The notes under the pieces: model-generated | What the model was told of the DNA's origin: nothing | Database searches by the model: none | What the model saw: the letters and a program-made list of their open reading frames with translations, nothing else | Position numbers and translations under genes: made by a program | Source of the DNA: Nibricoccus sp. | Lineage (GTDB): Bacteria > Verrucomicrobiota > Verrucomicrobiia > Opitutales > Opitutaceae | Length of the DNA: 64,000 nucleotides | Reading direction: 5' to 3' | NCBI GenBank assembly: GCA_047602425.1 | Contig: JASGHG010000001.1 | Span: 2,656,001 to 2,720,000, forward strand | Shown here: in pieces, positions 4,361-16,119 of the stretch | How positions within the stretch are numbered: position 1 is the stretch's first letter | Layout of the letters: the number at the start of each line of letters is the position of its first letter

Positions 4361-4552
4361 TTAGAGCTTCGTCTTTGTAAAAGCCAATCCGAGCGCGACG
4401 CCGACACCGATGCCGAGCGCGATGCCAAGACCTACGTTGTGCAAAGAGACCCCCATTGCGGTGCCGACGCCCGTCCCGAGAGCCATACCCACGCCTAGCC
4501 CAAGTGCCTTGGATTGCTGTTTTGGTTCTTTATTGTTGTTTGGTATATTCAT
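4361..4552 (-). CDS. Small glycine-zipper membrane protein
   Basis: 63 aa with GxxxG repeats (GLGVGMALGTGVGTAMG...GIALGIGVGVALG). Confidence 0.6.
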   Translation of the reverse strand: MNIPNNNKEPKQQSKALGLGVGMALGTGVGTAMGVSLHNVGLGIALGIGVGVALGLAFTKTKL

Positions 4553-6554: not shown

Positions 6555-7106
6555 TCACCTTGATTTTGTGAACGCGAGTTTGGCGGAATGGGCGCGGATG
6601 CGGCGAATTTCGGCGGTAGGGATGCCGAGGGATTCGAGGAAATCCTGATGGGCGGGCGGAGATTGTTTTTCGAACGCAGCGTGCCACTGCATCATCTCGG
6701 TGTCGTTCAGGCCGATGGAGCGAAGGAGATGGACCCATTTTTCTTTGGTCATGGCGCGGGCGAGGCGGTCGTGGCCTTTTCGCGGAAGCAGCTTGAGCAC
6801 AATTTCCTGCTGGCGGCGAAGCGCGGCAATCTCGTGATTGAGTTCGGTCAGGCGTCGGTGAAGAGCGGCGGCGATGCGAGTGCGCGAGGGGCGGGCGTCT
6901 TCGAGGAGGCGCTTGATAGCCGCGAGAGGGAGGCCGGTTTGGCGATAGCGACAAATTCGGCGCAGGCGGGATTCGTCTTCGGTCGAGTAGAGACGATAGC
7001 CCGCGGCGGTGCGATAAGTCGGGCGGACCAGGTTCAGGCGGTCGTAATAAAGCAGGGTGCTGCGCGAAAGGCCGAATTTTTTCCCAATGGCGCTGATGGG
7101 TTGCAT
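6555..7106 (-). CDS. MerR-family transcriptional regulator
   Basis: ATG at 7106: ISAIGKKFGLSRSTLLYYD...P.R...GYRLY HTH, coiled coil, C-terminal WH..FE...P.AH..FL..LG domain. Confidence 0.9.
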   Translation of the reverse strand: MQPISAIGKKFGLSRSTLLYYDRLNLVRPTYRTAAGYRLYSTEDESRLRRICRYRQTGLPLAAIKRLLEDARPSRTRIAAALHRRLTELNHEIAALRRQQEIVLKLLPRKGHDRLARAMTKEKWVHLLRSIGLNDTEMMQWHAAFEKQSPPAHQDFLESLGIPTAEIRRIRAHSAKLAFTKSR

Positions 7107-7170
7107 GGCGAGGGCGGAGATGAAAACGCGCCAGCTGCGAGAGTTCAACCGGCGCGTGAGGAACGGGAAC

Positions 7171-7359
7171 TCAAGCCTTTCGCGAGTGAGTGCGGATTTC
7201 CTGAATCGCCGCGGCGGGCAGGCCGAGGAATTCGAGGAAGCTTTGGTGCGCGTCCGGGTGACGTTGTTCGAAGAGCGCGTGGAGGCGCTGTTTTTGCGAG
7301 TCGGAGACGCCAGCTTCATTGAGCAGGGCGACGAATTGATCTTTGGTGATTCTCTTCAT
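7171..7359 (-). CDS. 62-aa protein homologous to the C-terminal domain of the downstream MerR
   Basis: MKRITKDQFVALLNEAGVSDSQKQRLHALFEQRHPDAHQSFLEFLGLPAAAIQEIRTHSRKA aligns without gaps to the MerR C-terminus. Confidence 0.8.
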   Translation of the reverse strand: MKRITKDQFVALLNEAGVSDSQKQRLHALFEQRHPDAHQSFLEFLGLPAAAIQEIRTHSRKA

Positions 7360-7406
7360 GGCGATGTGCGTTGGTTGTGGCCGGTGGTTTTCACCGGCGA
7401 AAGCAC

Positions 7407-7437
7407 AGCATGCACTATGAAGCTGTAGACGACTCAA
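7407..7437 (-). promoter_or_regulatory. Candidate MerR-type promoter with 19-bp spacer
   Basis: TTGAGT-N19-CATGCT on the minus strand; weak CTA-N8-TAG dyad in the spacer. Confidence 0.45.
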
Positions 7438-8983: not shown

Positions 8984-10120
8984 ATGTCCGATACCGACCA
9001 AGACTCAAAAACAGAGCAGGCGACCGACAAACATTTGTCGGAAGCGCGGTCAAAGGGTCAGTTCGCGAAGTCGCCGGAAATTTCGGTGGTGGCAATGCTG
9101 ACCGCGACGTTGGGCGCCTTGGCGTTAACGATGGGGACGGCGGCGAGCGAACTGGGTGGTCTGGCCGTAAGCATTTTTTCCAATTTGGGCTCGGCGCAAG
9201 TGACGACCGGAACGCTGGCTTCGCAACTAGGCGATATCATGCTGGTGATTGGGAAAGTTCTCGGTCCGATCATGGCGGCGGCGGTATTGGCCGCATTGAT
9301 TTCGGGTGGCATCCAAAGCGGTTTTCATTTCACGCCGGAGGTGCTGGGTTTTCACATTGAAAATTTGAATCCGGCGTCGGGCTTTCAAAAGCATTTTTCC
9401 AAAGCTGTATTCGTGCGCGCGGGCGTGGATTTGCTCAAATTGGTATGTATCGGAATGGTTCTATGGGTGGCGGCACGGAGCCTGTTTCGCGATCCGATTT
9501 TCACTGCGCCGGTCGAAGTGGTTTACGTCGGGCAATTCCTCGGCCGTGCGATGAAATCATTTATGTCTCGGCTCATTCTCATGCTGAGCGTGATCGCCGC
9601 GATCAGCTACTTCTACGAGTTCTACAAGACGAAAAAGGACATGATGATGACGCGTGAGGAAGTGAAGGAGGAGCACAAGCAGTCTGAAGGCGACGGCATG
9701 GTGAAAAGCGCGATGCGTCGCATGGCGCGTCGACTCGTGCAGAAGCAGATGCTGGCCAAGGTTCCAACCGCCGATGTCATCATCACCAATCCGACCCACT
9801 ACGCGGTGGCGTTGAAATACGAACGCGGCCTCGACAAGGCGCCAATCGTATTGGCGAAAGGGGAAAATCAATTCGCCCGCCGCATCAAGGCGCTCGCTGC
9901 GGAGCACGGTGTGCCAATGGTCGAGAACAAGCCTGTCGCCCGCATGCTTTATGCGCTGGGTCGCGTCGACGAAACAATTCCCTCCGAGCTATATCAGGCC
10001 GTGGCGGAGATCCTGGCCTTCGTTTATCGGACGCATCGTTACTATTTCTACCGCCTGAAATCCCGCCGGGCCGAAGCCGCCGCCGCGACACCCACGGTTG
10101 CCGAAACCGCCGGCAACTGA
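8984..10120 (+). CDS. flhB: Flagellar export switch protein FlhB
   Basis: KTEQAT...ARSKGQ N-terminus, TM helices, NPTHYAVAL autocleavage motif. Confidence 0.97.
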   Translation: MSDTDQDSKTEQATDKHLSEARSKGQFAKSPEISVVAMLTATLGALALTMGTAASELGGLAVSIFSNLGSAQVTTGTLASQLGDIMLVIGKVLGPIMAAAVLAALISGGIQSGFHFTPEVLGFHIENLNPASGFQKHFSKAVFVRAGVDLLKLVCIGMVLWVAARSLFRDPIFTAPVEVVYVGQFLGRAMKSFMSRLILMLSVIAAISYFYEFYKTKKDMMMTREEVKEEHKQSEGDGMVKSAMRRMARRLVQKQMLAKVPTADVIITNPTHYAVALKYERGLDKAPIVLAKGENQFARRIKALAAEHGVPMVENKPVARMLYALGRVDETIPSELYQAVAEILAFVYRTHRYYFYRLKSRRAEAAAATPTVAETAGN

Positions 10121-10149
10121 CCCGAACCAGTTCAATTTCCTAAAAATCC

Positions 10150-12351
10150 ATGCCAGCCGCCGCCCCCACCGCCAACGCCGCCGTATCGAGCTCCGATTCC
10201 GCCCCCGTGCTGAACAATCTCCTGAAGCGCGCCGACCTGATCTTTACCGCCGCGCTGTTCGGCACGGTGATGCTGCTGATCGTCCCCGTGCCGCCACTCG
10301 TGCTCGACATGCTGCTCGCGCTCAGCATCGGCCTGTCGCTCATGGTGCTGCTGGTGATCGTCTACGTGAAGGATCCACCGGAGTTCTCGGGTTTTCCCAC
10401 GATTTTGCTCGGGCTGACGCTCTATCGTTTGGCGCTAAATATTTGTTCGACCCGGCTCATTTTGACCAAGGGCCACGCAGGCAATATCATTGAATCGTTC
10501 GGTCACTTTGTGATTCAGGGCAACTACATCGTCGGCTTCGTGGTGTTCCTGATTCTGATTGTGATCAACTTCGTGGTTATCACCAAGGGCGCCGGCCGCA
10601 TCGCCGAAGTAAGCGCGCGTTTCACCTTGGACGCGATGCCGGGCAAGCAGATGGCCATCGATGCCGAACTCAATGCCGGCATCATTGACGAGTCCACCGC
10701 AACGTCGCGTCGTCTGAAAATCCAGAAAGAGGCCGATTTCTATGGCGCCATGGACGGTGCTTCGAAATTCGTGCGCGGCGACGCCATCGCGGGCATCCTC
10801 ATCACGCTGGTCAACGTCATTGGCGGTTTTGCGATCGGCGTTTTCCAAATGGATCTTTCGCTCGCCGAAGCGCTTCAAAAATTCACCCTTCTCTCCATCG
10901 GTGACGGTCTCGTGGCGCAAGTCCCCGCATTGATCATCTCCGTCGCGGCCGGTATCCTCGTCACCCGCGCTTCCGACAACACGAATCTCGGCATGCAAAT
11001 TGGCCGGCAGTTCGTGAAATACCCACGGGCGCTCGGCATTGCCGCTGTGATGCTGGCTGTCTTCGGCGTGATGCCGGGCATGCCCATCCTTCCATTTTTC
11101 CTGCTGGCCAGCACGCTTGGTTATGTCGCCTGGTTGCTCAAAAAGCAAATGCCTGAAGAAGCGTCCGAGGCTACGCGCGGCGGTCCTGTCGCCGCCAAGG
11201 GCAAGGACGGCAAGCCTCTTCCCGCCGGGCAACAACCTGCGGCCACCGGCAAGACCGGCCATTCCGCCACCGACGACTTACGCAAGCTCATCGACCTCGA
11301 CGTTTTTGCCATCGAGATTGGCTACGGCCTGCTTCCTCTGGCGGATGCGGCCAAGGGCGGCGATTTGCTTTCCCGCGTGACCGGTGTCCGTCGTTCGCTC
11401 GCGAAGGATCGGGGCATCGTCATGCCGCCGGTTTCGGTGCGGGATAATCTCGAACTCGAGCCGAACGACTACCGTTTCCTCCTCCGGGGAAAGCCCATTG
11501 CTCGCGGCAATGTCCATCCGGGCCGCTGGATGGCCATGAACGTTTCCGGCAGCAACGTGCGCTTGCGCGGTGTGCCAACCCGTGAACCTGTTTTCAATCT
11601 CGAAGCCACTTGGATCGAGGAAAACGAGAAAAAGACCGCCGAACTCAACGGCTACACGGTCGTCGATCCGTCGTCGGTCATGATCACGCACCTTTCGGAA
11701 TCGCTAAAATCCGTCGCCCACTTGTTGCTAGGTCGTCAGGACGTGCAAACCCTCGTCGATCACGTGAAGGAAACGAATCCCGCACTCGTCGCCGAGTTGT
11801 TGCCCGACTTGGTCAATCTCGGCGTTATCCAGCGCGTTCTCCAGAATCTGCTGCGCGAAAATGTTTCGATCATCAACCTACCGCTCATCCTGGAATGCAT
11901 CGGCGACTTCGCCTCGCTGACGAAAAATCCCGACGACCTCAGCGAACTCGTTCGCCGCCGGCTCGGCATGTATTTTGTTCCTGAATACGAGTACCGTCCT
12001 GGCGCGATCAAGGCCCTCACGCTCGACCCGCGCCTCGAACAAATTCTTGCGGGCAAAATCCATCGCACCGCGAGCGAAGTCGGCCTCGCGCTCGAACCCG
12101 CCACCGGCCACCATTTGCTCAACGAACTCAATCAGCGCACGACCGAACTCGTGCAGCAGGGCCTGCCTGCGGCGCTCGTGGTTTCGGCGGAGATCCGTCT
12201 GCCGGTCAAACGCTTCTTCGAGCCGTCGCTCCCGCGTTTGGTTGTCCTCTCTTTCCAGGAATTGCCTAGCTCGGTCGAAGTGGAAAACGCCGGCTTCATC
12301 CCGCTGCCCGCCCACCTAAACCGAGTCGAACCCGCCAAAGTCGCCGCCTGA
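10150..12351 (+). CDS. flhA: Flagellar export gate protein FlhA
   Basis: RIAEVSARFTLDAMPGKQMAIDAEL, FYGAMDGASKFVRGDA (FHIPEP family). Confidence 0.97.
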   Translation: MPAAAPTANAAVSSSDSAPVLNNLLKRADLIFTAALFGTVMLLIVPVPPLVLDMLLALSIGLSLMVLLVIVYVKDPPEFSGFPTILLGLTLYRLALNICSTRLILTKGHAGNIIESFGHFVIQGNYIVGFVVFLILIVINFVVITKGAGRIAEVSARFTLDAMPGKQMAIDAELNAGIIDESTATSRRLKIQKEADFYGAMDGASKFVRGDAIAGILITLVNVIGGFAIGVFQMDLSLAEALQKFTLLSIGDGLVAQVPALIISVAAGILVTRASDNTNLGMQIGRQFVKYPRALGIAAVMLAVFGVMPGMPILPFFLLASTLGYVAWLLKKQMPEEASEATRGGPVAAKGKDGKPLPAGQQPAATGKTGHSATDDLRKLIDLDVFAIEIGYGLLPLADAAKGGDLLSRVTGVRRSLAKDRGIVMPPVSVRDNLELEPNDYRFLLRGKPIARGNVHPGRWMAMNVSGSNVRLRGVPTREPVFNLEATWIEENEKKTAELNGYTVVDPSSVMITHLSESLKSVAHLLLGRQDVQTLVDHVKETNPALVAELLPDLVNLGVIQRVLQNLLRENVSIINLPLILECIGDFASLTKNPDDLSELVRRRLGMYFVPEYEYRPGAIKALTLDPRLEQILAGKIHRTASEVGLALEPATGHHLLNELNQRTTELVQQGLPAALVVSAEIRLPVKRFFEPSLPRLVVLSFQELPSSVEVENAGFIPLPAHLNRVEPAKVAA

Positions 12352-12358
12352 GCCAGCC

Positions 12359-13477
12359 ATGAACACCCAAGATCAACCGTCCACGCTGCAACCCGGCGCC
12401 ACTTACCGTTTTGTCGTTCGCTCGGCCGAGGAGGCCGTGCAAACCATCCGCGAACGCCTCGGCGAAGACGCCCGCGTGCTCTCTGTCCGACAGTTGAAAG
12501 GCGAGGGGCTCGGCGGACTTTTTGGCCGGGCCAAGCTTGAAGTCGTCGCGCAAGTCGCGATTCCCGAACCGAACCTTTTGCCATATCCACCGGGAGGCGT
12601 TTCCGCCGGTACGGCTGGCGCCGCGGGCGAAGCCGCTTCGGAGGATTCGACGTTGTCGTCCCGTCTGACGGATTACGCCACGGCTCGAGCCGCCGCTGCT
12701 TCGGTGCAGCGCGATGTGCCTACGCGTCTGCCTGAACTTTTGCGTCGCGCCGGATTCTCAGAATCGGCTTTGGCTCGCTTGCAATCGCTGCCGGTTTTTG
12801 CCGCGCAGTCAGAACAACCTTTGCACCACGCCATCGCCGAGGTCGGCCGAGCGCTGCGCCAGATCGTGGAAAAGCGTCCGGCCCGGCCGCTGCCGATGCG
12901 CGTCGCCTTTTTGGGCACGCCCGGAGTGGGGCGCACGACGGCCCTCTGCAAGTGGCTTTCCCGTGAAGTTTTTTCGAAGAAGAAAATGGCGCGCGTGCTG
13001 AAGGCCGAGTTTGACCGGCCCAATCCTGCCGAGGGACTCGCGGTGTTTTGCGAGGCGCTGGGTGTGACGCTCGATTACCACGCGCCTGGCCAGGACGACG
13101 CCGGGTATGCGCCCACCGGCGAAACTCAAGGGTCTTTGTTTGCCGATTTGCCCGGTCTTTCGCTGCGCTCGCCTTCGGAAAACGCCGCCCTTGCGAAATT
13201 CCTGGATCGCGGACGCTTCACTGGCCGCGTGCTCGTGCTCAATGCCGCTTACGATGCTGCCATGCTGCGCCGTGCCTACGCCGCCGGTCGCGATCTTGGT
13301 GCGACCCACCTCGTTTTCACGCACCTCGACGAACTGGAACATTGGGGCAAGCTCTGGGACTTGCTGCTTGAGGGCGAAATGACCCCGCTGTTTCTCGCGA
13401 CCGGTCCGAGCCTCTCCGGCGATTGCGAGGAAAACCTCCTCGACGCCATCCTGCGCCGCACGCTGCCCGGAGCTTAA
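12359..13477 (+). CDS. flhF: FlhF-like SRP-family GTPase with degenerate motifs
   Basis: Position after flhA; N-terminal EAV..IR..LG.DA.VLSVR; GTPGVGRTT, DLPG, THLDE. Confidence 0.85.
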   Translation: MNTQDQPSTLQPGATYRFVVRSAEEAVQTIRERLGEDARVLSVRQLKGEGLGGLFGRAKLEVVAQVAIPEPNLLPYPPGGVSAGTAGAAGEAASEDSTLSSRLTDYATARAAAASVQRDVPTRLPELLRRAGFSESALARLQSLPVFAAQSEQPLHHAIAEVGRALRQIVEKRPARPLPMRVAFLGTPGVGRTTALCKWLSREVFSKKKMARVLKAEFDRPNPAEGLAVFCEALGVTLDYHAPGQDDAGYAPTGETQGSLFADLPGLSLRSPSENAALAKFLDRGRFTGRVLVLNAAYDAAMLRRAYAAGRDLGATHLVFTHLDELEHWGKLWDLLLEGEMTPLFLATGPSLSGDCEENLLDAILRRTLPGA

Positions 13478-13512
13478 TTTTCCATCCAGACAACCGATTT
13501 TAAAAACCCGTC

Positions 13513-13782
13513 ATGCGCTTCATCTTTCTCATTGGTGGTTTCGTTTGTTTCGTGCTCGTCTCGCTCGGCGGCTGGCTGGCCGATCGTGCGATCGACAACA
13601 TCCTGCGCGATGCGGCGATCGCGGCGCTGATCGGCGGTTTTCTTTTCCGCTGGTTCTGGTCGATTTTCGTGAAACTCCTGAGTCAGGCCGTACGCGCAAA
13701 ACGCGCCGCCGAAAAGGCGCGCGAAGACGCTGCTCATGCCGCCGCGAAGGCCGCAGCCAACGCCGCCCTGAAGCGCACCTAA
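13513..13782 (+). CDS. Small two-TM hypothetical protein
   Basis: 89 aa, two hydrophobic helices and an Ala/Lys-rich tail; co-oriented in the operon. Confidence 0.7.
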   Translation: MRFIFLIGGFVCFVLVSLGGWLADRAIDNILRDAAIAALIGGFLFRWFWSIFVKLLSQAVRAKRAAEKAREDAAHAAAKAAANAALKRT

Positions 13783-14017
13783 ATTTTTGCCCCGCTCATT
13801 CCTTTCTCGCGCCATTTGCTGAAGCAGGGATTGCCGGGGTGGATTTGCCTTGCTGGCGATGGGGTAAACCCGTTGCACCACCGCACAACTTTCACTGGAG
13901 CAACGGGATATGTCGCTACAGTTTTGAGATTTTGCGTCGTTATATATTTTGTCGAACGAGCTATTCGACGTGAGTTGCCCGGATCGCGGACCCGGGAAAT
14001 CTCGGTTGGACGGAGTG

Positions 14018-14032
14018 GGGAAAATTTTGCCG
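14018..14032 (+). promoter_or_regulatory. Putative sigma54 enhancer (ftr-like, imperfect) upstream of fliA
   Basis: GGGAA-AATTT-TGCCG, ending 108 bp before the -24 GG. Confidence 0.5.
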
Positions 14033-14138
14033 AGAGCCGTTTGGCTCTGGCGGCGACTTCGAGAAATTTGGCGGTTTTGCATGAAATAAATTTTTTAACC
14101 CTCTGGTATTAGCCGGGTAACGGCTCACTTAGGGTGCT

Positions 14139-14154
14139 TGGCATCACGCATGCG
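14139..14154 (+). promoter_or_regulatory. sigma54 promoter of fliA
   Basis: TGGCATCACGCATGCG = GG-N10-GC, preceded by an AT-rich tract. Confidence 0.65.
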
Positions 14155-14271
14155 ATAGGGAGATCCGTGAAGTTAGCCCACGTCCAAAACACCATAGCGA
14201 CCCTCCGGTTGCTTGCCTCCTGAAAAGTTAGCCTCCCTCGCATCTCAATCGCTCCCCAACCCTGCCGCCCT

Positions 14272-15069
14272 ATGAAAAATGCTTCCTCCGCCGCCCTCGC
14301 CACTGAACCCACACACGCCGCCAGCGCTTGGAGAATCTATCAGGGTGCCCAGTCTGAACACCTCGATGAGAAAGAGCTCATCGAGCGTTATCTCCCCCTC
14401 GTGCGCAACGTGGTTGACCGTATCAAGCTCAACCTGCCGCCGCACGTCGACGTGGAAGACCTTTACTCCGTGGGTGTTACTGGCTTGATCGCCGCCGTCC
14501 GCCGTTACGATCCCGAGCAGGGCCACACTTTTGCCGGCTACGCCACGACCCGCATTCGCGGCGCCATTCTCGACGAACTCCGCCGCCTCGACTGGTGCCC
14601 GCGCCGTGCCCGCGCCAAGGCCAAGAAGCTCAAGGAGTCGATCAACGAACTCGAACAGAAGCTCGGCCGCGCCGCCAGCGAAGAGGAAGTTCGCCAGCAC
14701 CTGAATCTCACGCCCAAGGAATACGCCAAATGGATGGAGGAAGCCCGTCCGGTTTGTTTCGTCGCGATCGACCAGACCGCCGAAAATGAAGATTCCGAAG
14801 GCGCTTCGCTTCACGAGCTGATCGCTGACGAGTCCGATGTTTCCGTTCGCGACCGCATGGAAAAGGAAGAGCTCATGCAGATGGTGGCCACCCGCATCGC
14901 CGAGCTCCCGGAAATTCCGAAGAAGATCCTCGCCATGTACTACTTCGAAAACATGCGCTTGGCCGAAATCGCCGCGGTTTTCGATCTGACGGAGTCCCGT
15001 ATTTGCCAGATTCACGCGCAGACCGTGATTGGTCTCCGCGCTTACATCCAGCGCATGCGCAGCCGCTAA
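14272..15069 (+). CDS. fliA: Flagellar sigma factor sigma28
   Basis: RIRGAILDELRRLDW, region 4 LAEIAAVFDLTESRICQIH. Confidence 0.96.
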   Translation: MKNASSAALATEPTHAASAWRIYQGAQSEHLDEKELIERYLPLVRNVVDRIKLNLPPHVDVEDLYSVGVTGLIAAVRRYDPEQGHTFAGYATTRIRGAILDELRRLDWCPRRARAKAKKLKESINELEQKLGRAASEEEVRQHLNLTPKEYAKWMEEARPVCFVAIDQTAENEDSEGASLHELIADESDVSVRDRMEKEELMQMVATRIAELPEIPKKILAMYYFENMRLAEIAAVFDLTESRICQIHAQTVIGLRAYIQRMRSR

Positions 15070-15100
15070 GCAGCAATTTTTTCCTGTTATGCATTCGAAG

Positions 15101-15133
15101 GACCCCCGTTTTAGCGACCGGGGGTCTTTTTTT
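15101..15133 (+). terminator. Intrinsic terminator after fliA
   Basis: GACCCCCG-loop-CGGGGGTC followed by T7. Confidence 0.85.
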
Positions 15134-15192
15134 GCCGTCGGGATTTTTCCCACTGGGCGATGCATGTTTCTGTTACGTTGCGTGATGGAGGC

Positions 15193-15220
15193 TAAAGAGA
15201 CGGCACAGATGAGCCGTTAG
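15193..15220 (+). promoter_or_regulatory. Candidate sigma28 promoter of motAB
   Basis: TAAA-N16-GCCGTTAG located between the terminator and motA. Confidence 0.55.
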
Positions 15221-15243
15221 GGTAAAACACCCGGTTAACCAAT

Positions 15244-16119
15244 ATGTTGATCCTTGTCGGAGCGTTTATCGTTTTTGCAGCGACCCTAGGCGGCTTTATG
15301 TACGCCGGCGGGAAGCCCGTTTTGCTCCTGCATCTCTCGGAGTTCATGGTCATCGGCGGCATCGCGTTGGGCGTTCTCGTGATCGCGAGTCCGACCCACA
15401 TGCTCAAGGAAATCATCCACAAGGTGAAACACGCCGTGCTCGGCAAACCGACCAGCAAAGCCGAATATTTCGATCTCCTGAAAATGCTGTACGAGATTTT
15501 CATGGTCGGCCGCCGCAACGGTCTGATTGCGCTCGAAGAGCACGTGATGAATCCCGGCAGCAGTTCCATCTTTGCGAAGTACCCTTCGTTCACTGCCAAC
15601 CACGAACGCATGCAATTTCTCATCAACGGACTCAAGCCCGTGATCGACGGCAAAATCAAACCCGACCAGCTCGAAGACTTGATGTACACCGAACTCGAAG
15701 CCAAGGGCGAGGAAGGCGACCATCCCGTACATCTGCTTCAACTCGTGGGCGATTCCTTGCCTGGCATCGGCATCGTTGCCGCTGTGCTCGGTATCATCAA
15801 CACCATGGCTGCCATCGCCGATGGACCCGAGGCCGTGGGTGAACGTGTGGCGGCCGCGTTGACCGGCACATTTCTTGGCGTGTTTTTCGCCTACGGTTTC
15901 ATCAACCCGATGGCCAATCGCGTGAAATTCAACAACGCCGCCGAGATGACCTACATGAAGTGCATTCTCGCCGCGGTCGCCGGTTTCGCCAAGGGCCTCG
16001 CCCCGCTGACGGCCGTCGAAGTTGCCCGCCGCTCCCTCGATAGTGGCGTCCAGCCTGCCGCCGATGAACTCGAGCAAACCCTCAAGTCCATGCCCGCCCC
16101 CGGTAAATCCCAGGGCTGA
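15244..16119 (+). CDS. motA: Flagellar stator MotA
   Basis: RRNGLIALEEH, DSLPGIGIVAAVLGII, AALTGTFLG. Confidence 0.96.
   Translation: MLILVGAFIVFAATLGGFMYAGGKPVLLLHLSEFMVIGGIALGVLVIASPTHMLKEIIHKVKHAVLGKPTSKAEYFDLLKMLYEIFMVGRRNGLIALEEHVMNPGSSSIFAKYPSFTANHERMQFLINGLKPVIDGKIKPDQLEDLMYTELEAKGEEGDHPVHLLQLVGDSLPGIGIVAAVLGIINTMAAIADGPEAVGERVAAALTGTFLGVFFAYGFINPMANRVKFNNAAEMTYMKCILAAVAGFAKGLAPLTAVEVARRSLDSGVQPAADELEQTLKSMPAPGKSQG

Follow-up and report, generated by a model that had tools for sequence, protein, structure and literature searches.

The closest described systems are TipAL/TipAS of Streptomyces lividans and AlbA of Klebsiella oxytoca, in which a MerR activator is accompanied by a free copy of its ligand-binding domain. 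MerR proteins dimerise by a long helix, and the two effector domains of the dimer usually sit at opposite ends. In other systems (GolS/GolB, CueR/CueP, and PbrR/PbrD), a MerR protein induces a separate small protein that binds the inducer. These regulators use Cys-based metal sites and, unlike the protein described here, GolB, CueP, and PbrD are to our knowledge not copies of the regulator's own sensing domain.

TipAS is an in-frame short product of the TipAL gene and sequesters the ligand, according to the available part of the source (PMC7762955), which agrees with the statement in an earlier note on this DNA that TipAS arises from an internal start in the same gene. AlbAS is a 221-aa tandem domain made from an in-frame start; in the available portion of the preprint it sequesters the ligand and is proposed to damp activation (bioRxiv 10.64898/2026.09.21.753095).

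We analyzed a 64,000-nucleotide stretch of a Nibricoccus sp. genome (the window), in which a small gene that codes for a stand-alone copy of a MerR effector domain directly precedes the merR gene itself. The arrangement resembles TipAL/TipAS in its MerR activator, a free effector-domain copy as the apparent output, and a long-spacer promoter. The N-terminal half of the regulator matches TipAN (Z 14.2, rmsd 4.7, 100 aligned) and also MtaN. It differs from TipA in that the domain is ~60 aa, has a His-Glu-His triad, and has no Cys and no TipAS Pfam match. The free domain also has a gene to itself, which diverged long ago and is bounded by its own hairpin, whereas TipAS comes from a second start codon, as far as the available text describes it (PMC7762955). 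AlbA is similar in being a self-induced MerR with a 19-bp spacer and a free, all-helical ligand domain, but the 221-aa AlbAS tandem is made from an in-frame start, as described in the available portion (bioRxiv 10.64898/2026.09.21.753095), and here a single ~60-aa unit has a separate gene. A sequence search found no match between AlbAS and the domain. The locus appears to work like TipA and AlbA but to be a member of neither, since it uses another domain and supplies the free copy from a separate gene.

The earlier note did not recognise a described system, and no description of the pair, the domain, or the promoter was found in the literature covered, mostly from outside subscription journals. 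The CDD 'HTH_Cfa-like' MerR subfamilies presumably have a MerR HTH that in some members is fused to a SAM methyltransferase, as in loci L046, L053, and L069. These are sequence-only HTH models, and we know of no effector domain, promoter, or small partner described for them; a literature text search on their labels found nothing relevant. The cassette is a real, widespread, and apparently undescribed variant of a known strategy on a new domain. Two regulators were considered as possible known members, Vibrio cholerae VCA0056 (PMC5241685) and MliR (PMC9478572); the available parts of these texts give no link to the family.

Locus structure

All elements lie on the minus strand, in the order promoter-like element, 7-bp hairpin, 62-aa open reading frame (ORF), 12-bp hairpin, and merR.

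7407..7437, minus strand: predicted MerR-type promoter/operator (putative function), with -35 TTGAGT at 7437-7432, a 19-nt spacer with a conserved core, and -10 CATGCT at 7412-7407
7380..7398, minus strand: 7-bp hairpin in the predicted 5' leader (folding energy -13.9 kcal/mol), possibly an mRNA-stabilising stem
7171..7359, minus strand: small gene, 62 aa, ATG start; stand-alone copy of the MerR effector domain, four helices, H27-x3-E31-x6-H38, predicted homodimer
7126..7157, minus strand: 12-bp intergenic hairpin with a short U-rich tail (-21.7 kcal/mol, z -3.9), with a putative role in transcript balance
6555..7106, minus strand: merR, 183 aa; winged HTH at ~1-70, long helix at 75-106, linker, and His-Glu-His domain at 119-176
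6579..6752, minus strand: MerR C-terminal effector domain, from in-frame Met119; 48% identical to the small protein, with invariant H142, E146, and H153

The promoter-like element and the 7-bp hairpin (7398-7380) claimed in the earlier note were both located. Its gap-free alignment of the 62-aa ORF to the MerR C-terminus was reproduced by BLASTP, with 28 of 58 residues identical to MerR 119-176 (48%, no gaps, E 8e-19). The 12-bp intergenic hairpin at 7157-7126 is an element absent from that note. The gap between the small gene and merR is 64 nt. An 88-aa form of the small ORF with a TTG start is unlikely; this start falls inside the promoter, and relatives are mostly 62 aa.

The regulator is a member of the MerR family. 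Its N-terminus matches Pfam MerR_1 (PF13411, 54.7 bits against a cut-off of 21.6, E 1e-14), residues 1-112 give the fold matches to MtaN and TipAN, and the long helix after the HTH is predicted with high pLDDT. No Cys ligands occur in the domain of the small protein or of MerR. Every NCBIfam score for the two proteins is far below cut-off, which places neither in the Cys-based metal/redox class (MerR, CueR, ZntR, CadR, and SoxR). The TipAS domain PF07739 gave no match to either protein at E<=1 and is not among the best 25 of the 75 Pfam families listed for 84 relatives.

The adjoining genes code for a DUF2314 protein and a polysaccharide deacetylase (Pfam) and are not common to related loci. 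A flagellar cluster with FlhB-, FlhA-, FlhF-, FliA-, and MotA-like ORFs was recognised by eye at 8984-16119 of the window. At 4361-4552, on the minus strand, is a 63-aa, glycine-rich, and hydrophobic ORF without a significant Pfam match.

The gene pair across genomes

A profile search with the 62-aa protein, as the earlier note had suggested, gave 627 clusters at E<=0.001, with stand-alone and MerR-fused forms both present. All 58 candidates from a word-based search are relatives, most of them 62 aa long and all within 65-100% identity; those with names indicate a verrucomicrobial, Opitutaceae-like host. A pattern scan of GTDB genomes gave at least 121 stretches, from which one duplicate and one divergent merR were dropped; the remaining stretches listed include 79 with the pair, 12 with the small gene alone, 10 with too little DNA, and 18 without a stand-alone gene. 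Among these listed matches, the small gene lies directly before merR in 79 of 91 evaluable loci, a count from a scan pattern that favoured stand-alone forms and so not the share of merR genes that are paired. Paired loci occur in eight phyla (Thermodesulfobacteriota, Verrucomicrobiota, Pseudomonadota, Acidobacteriota, Myxococcota, Kiritimatiellota, Lentisphaerota, and Nitrospirota). The co-occurrence with this MerR subfamily that the earlier note proposed to check is borne out, and judged by gene order the small gene and merR are a conserved cassette. Where the small gene is alone, merR was found elsewhere in the genome in four of the five cases tested.

Distribution of the domain is patchy. 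It was found in 22 of 151 Opitutaceae genomes, occurring twice in 20 and as an adjacent pair in 17 of the 22, and in 19/351, 18/351, and 13/400 genomes of three further samples. Genes flanking the paired loci are heterogeneous and give no clue to the ligand. The Pfam matches of the 81 flanking ORFs scanned include no recurring metal-handling family, and many of these ORFs are without a family and probably wrong-frame picks from crude gene calling. No relatives were found in viral contigs, and an Rfam search gave a single match at chance level. At one locus (L106), merR runs in frame into ABC permease-like sequence to form a 1063-aa ORF, possibly by a lost stop or an assembly artefact.

Promoter and transcript structure

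The 19-bp-spacer promoter of the earlier note is conserved with the pair across phyla. The motif (TTGACC, a conserved-core spacer of 19 nt, and a TANNNT -10) was found in 91 of 103 upstream regions of the listed loci, and within the -10 element A2 is invariant and T6 usual. A matrix was trained on those 103 regions, two of which are merR-internal and none of which is the window's own site. The window promoter scores 33.7 bits and is the top site in the 5.16-Mb genome. The runner-up scores 16.0 bits (G000:3280917) and was rejected as a second site, as it overlaps a probable start codon. Because there is a single strong site, the small protein looks like the regulator's only output in this genome, with the reservation that degenerate sites could escape a motif search. 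A generic sigma-70 scan gave no promoter at the locus because it allows only 16-18 bp spacers. Dyad symmetry in the promoter is weak in the window and clearer in a soil clade described below. Some Opitutaceae loci (L007, L009-L012, L042, and L105) have a -35 that has drifted to TGGAGG with the spacer core kept. A palindrome, GTCAYGGCCRTGA, occurs just after the -10 in 33 of 77 paired loci (L033-L153), mostly outside Opitutaceae, and may be a 5' hairpin or a second operator.

Leader structure is partly conserved (z<-1.5 in 24 of 77 loci), and a strong intergenic hairpin (z<-2) is present in 56 of 70 paired loci. The 12-bp intergenic hairpin is a probable leaky terminator or 3' stem that favours the small protein over MerR. 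The small gene would then be the main transcript, with merR read through at a lower level. The 64-nt gap has no evident room for a separate merR promoter, and one inside the small ORF may exist.

Other targets of the promoter

Among the matches listed, 118 merR loci were sorted after six truncated or aberrant ones had been dropped. Of these, 79 have the pair, in 13 the promoter immediately precedes merR itself, and in 26 it serves some other target. The 26 comprise 15 SRPBCC-like proteins, five MFS transporters (one with a weak site only), two EamA, two winged-helix, and two hypothetical proteins. Seven of the SRPBCC-like targets were scanned and match PF10604 (E 3e-8 to 0.014); the others were recognised by a shared motif. 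A Sporomusa locus has promoter sites before a C45 acyltransferase and before an MFS transporter, and in five loci (L046, L053, L069, L198, and L207) MerR is fused to a SAM methyltransferase. As these alternative outputs serve binding, efflux, and modification, the small-gene slot would also be a detoxification output, and for the same reason the ligand is somewhat more probably organic than a bare metal ion.

Further observations concern individual targets. The SRPBCC-like subfamily, with its conserved FPLLCPVRE motif, is the commonest alternative target (L045, L086, L091, L103, L173, L178, L180-L186, L205, and L220). The methyltransferase of L053 closely resembles uncharacterised proteins from structural genomics, 3kkz among them (E 4e-50); the substrate of the fused methyltransferase would hint at the inducer. 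In L200 (2440-2850) and L203 (2633-3049), the promoter stands before a winged-helix protein, beside a Fur/FeoA-like gene recognised by eye. These two targets recall what we take to be the N-terminus of MerB; they match only generic HTH families in Pfam, and a PDB search gave no support for the likeness.

The His-Glu-His domain

In an alignment of 84 sequences, hand-picked from the protein matches, H27, E31, H38, and L42 are invariant, and the MerR counterparts H142, E146, and H153 are invariant in 45 MerR proteins. H58 is rare (14% of 116 stand-alone and 9% of 88 MerR-fused domains). Of the three aligned His to which the earlier note pointed, H27 and H38 are thus conserved and H58 is not, and the site is His-Glu-His. 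This residue pattern suggests metal binding by the small protein, in whose model zinc was placed without a score.

Structure prediction of both domains, also proposed in that note, gave four helices for the small protein (pLDDT 93.5), alongside the MtaN- and TipAN-like N-terminal fold of MerR. H27, E31, and H38 sit on helices 2 and 3 of the model. Modelling predicts that two copies of the small protein intertwine as a homodimer, with helix 1 of each packed against helices 2-3 of its partner. The homodimer model with zinc added scores 0.74, against 0.02 for the best control, and the runs have at least 92% contact agreement and a pLDDT of at least 88. Among solved structures, 20 of 30 pairs attain this mark, as does 1 of 23 single chains; these counts are only roughly applicable here.

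The small protein belongs to no Pfam or NCBIfam family, and the 84 relatives gave scattered weak Pfam matches only. A PDB sequence search with the domain profile had a best E of 0.04. A fold search with the small protein, using a monomer model of what is probably an intertwined dimer, gave no Foldseek match at E<=0.001 and a best Z of 4.4 in a wide search. The Atlas gave three unnamed clusters at 0.91-0.92 for the small protein and no named match for the MerR domain. If the sense-and-sequester reading proposed below is right, the domain would be a ligand-binding domain absent from Pfam, NCBIfam, and solved structures.

Self-driven merR genes and probable internal starts

Among the listed loci, 7 of 13 self-driven merR genes have an in-frame start codon where the domain begins, with a ribosome-site energy of <=-5; the same is true of 3 of 79 paired genes and 5 of 26 others. 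A targeted metagenome search gave 80 loci, or 71 distinct merR genes after removal of eight duplicates and one locus without the motif. These soil genes are close kin (67-93% identical to the query) and count as one clade's trait and not as independent cases. The promoter lies directly before merR in 68 of the 71, and the codon at the domain start is ATG in 70 and GTG in 1. A purine-rich tract precedes this codon. Ribosome-site energy there is -5.1, compared to -3.7 for synonymous resampling, than which it is stronger in 56 of 71, and to -1.3 for background. A single-gene version, in which an internal start yields the free domain, thus probably exists in this sister clade.

The internal ATG is kept in 2 of 21 paired Thermodesulfobacteriota, and an in-frame ATG occurs at the domain start in 13 of 17 Opitutaceae pairs. 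Only 4 of the 17 Opitutaceae small genes have a ribosome site, and the ribosome-site test is uninformative in that family, where Shine-Dalgarno sites are rarely used. A short isoform from Met119 is possible in this window too. In one locus (L102), the stand-alone domain is of the fused type and has a promoter of its own, suggesting that the separate gene arose a second time.

Proposed mechanism and alternatives

We propose, with somewhat better than even confidence, that the locus is a minimal sense-and-sequester circuit like those of TipA and AlbA, with a His-Glu-His domain and a trap supplied by a separate gene. MerR would be sparingly made, probably from transcripts that read through the intergenic hairpin, and would sit on the 19-bp spacer. 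A harmful small ligand would bind its His-Glu-His domain and activate the promoter in the usual MerR way, with a short mRNA for the 62-aa free domain as the main product. The free domain would dimerise and bind the same ligand stoichiometrically, lowering free ligand until the circuit is switched off, a feedback. The likeliest ligand is an organic toxin or metal-bound compound, which would be recognised via a metal held by H27/E31/H38.

This sequestration is favoured because, among other points, free and fused domains share one invariant set of three polar residues, and because there is precedent in TipAS and AlbAS, whose in-frame short products sequester ligand in the available descriptions. 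The earlier note's idea of a sponge gains from two further results: the same promoter drives binding and efflux proteins where the small gene is absent, and the sister clade seems to produce its free domain by starting translation within merR. Two points count against it. A 62-residue domain is small for a drug pocket, and the positions of the modelled dimer interface are conserved in the MerR domain, which would make inhibition by a heterodimer structurally equally possible. Given the predicted self-pairing surface, a heterodimer is a plausible added layer.

A metal-dependent mini-enzyme, or a metal buffer or chaperone, is an unlikely alternative. H27/E31/H38 would then form a two-His-one-carboxylate site that destroys the inducer or binds free Zn, Ni, Co, Fe, or Cu. 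The invariant triad on helices 2 and 3 fits this, as do H27 and E31, which are not listed in the dimer interface and so fit an intrachain site, and the few alternative targets that are near Fur/FeoA-like genes or presumably MerB N-terminus-like. The commonest other outputs (SRPBCC, EamA, methyltransferase, and C45 acyltransferase), however, act on organic molecules, metal-handling families do not recur in the flanks, and the domain lacks Cys ligands. Sequence cannot separate a buffer or mini-enzyme from a sponge.

Similarly unlikely, and ranked next, is an anti-activator of the microprotein type, with the small protein pairing with the MerR C-terminal domain by way of the intertwined interface common to both and blocking activation as direct negative feedback. 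Its predicted self-pairing uses positions 4, 12, 13, 16-18, 26, 30, and 41, which are similar in the MerR domain, and identities of free and fused domains co-vary across loci (Spearman 0.48, non-independent pairs). The AlbA preprint, in its available portion, also proposes that short isoforms are negative regulators (bioRxiv 10.64898/2026.09.21.753095). With one strong site in the genome, however, a pure inhibitor would leave the regulator without an output, and where loci lack the small gene, pumps and binding proteins occupy its slot behind the promoter. The small protein is also without the long helix used for MerR dimerisation and keeps its ligand-type residues invariant.

Improbable is a co-activator, in which the MerR half-domain must pair with a free copy to sense or activate, a positive feedback. 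The predicted intertwined dimer and the usual placement of the two MerR effector domains at opposite dimer ends would fit it, but many merR genes are without a neighbouring small gene or internal start (e.g., L178, L180, and L182), and the genomes of those genes gave a single domain match.

A more far-reaching form of the sense-and-sequester reading seems to us possible but doubtful. It would make the locus part of a MerR subfamily that is so far undescribed, has a dimeric His-Glu-His sensor of new fold, and displays a full evolutionary series: an internal start, an independent gene (at least two origins, with L102), and replacement by a pump or enzyme under one promoter across eight phyla. 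Such a free domain would have two roles at once, trapping a toxic ligand widespread in soil and sediment as a sponge and pairing directly with the regulator's domain as a microprotein inhibitor. If the sense-and-sequester reading is right, the locus would be about the smallest possible inducible detoxification circuit, one regulator and a 60-residue trap, and gene duplication would be a second route, besides alternative starts, to the TipAS/AlbAS strategy. A simple screen with a reporter on the conserved promoter could then reveal the inducer directly, and the module might be of use as a compact biosensor.

Origin and selection of the small gene

Judged by dN/dS, the small gene is under purifying selection. 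The median is 0.15, with values <0.5 in 47 of 54 locus pairs picked independently by MerR similarity. Values against two same-genus relatives are 0.04 and 0.09. An all-pairs estimate has a median of 0.58 over 708 pairs picked by synonymous distance and was discounted because saturated distant pairs are among them. On a weakly resolved tree of 202 domains, built from 56 columns, 6 changes suffice to account for the stand-alone label, compared to 66 in shuffles. A single group (SH-aLRT 86) takes in 112 of 114 stand-alone copies and three fused rows. Each of 64 small proteins compared is at least as close to another small protein as to its own MerR. Because of this and the tree grouping, the duplication is taken to be old and not a case of local decay. 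A decaying local duplication without function, which the earlier note had tied to a lack of homologues or of purifying selection, has virtually no probability left and is excluded by these comparisons: only the high all-pairs estimate speaks for it, against the many homologues, the low dN/dS of the MerR-picked pairs, and the separation of small proteins from their own MerR.

In one sediment metatranscriptome study, a 195-nt contig (depth 2.5, ~95% identical) covers 7171-7358. The contig, which could be DNA and in which the absence of merR cover is uninformative, agrees with expression of the small gene. Copies of the small gene without the promoter motif were seen in Geomonas (L036:3445-3657) and Citrifermentans (L071:3445-3648), in a shared housekeeping context, and the Citrifermentans genome holds a normal pair besides its motif-less copy.
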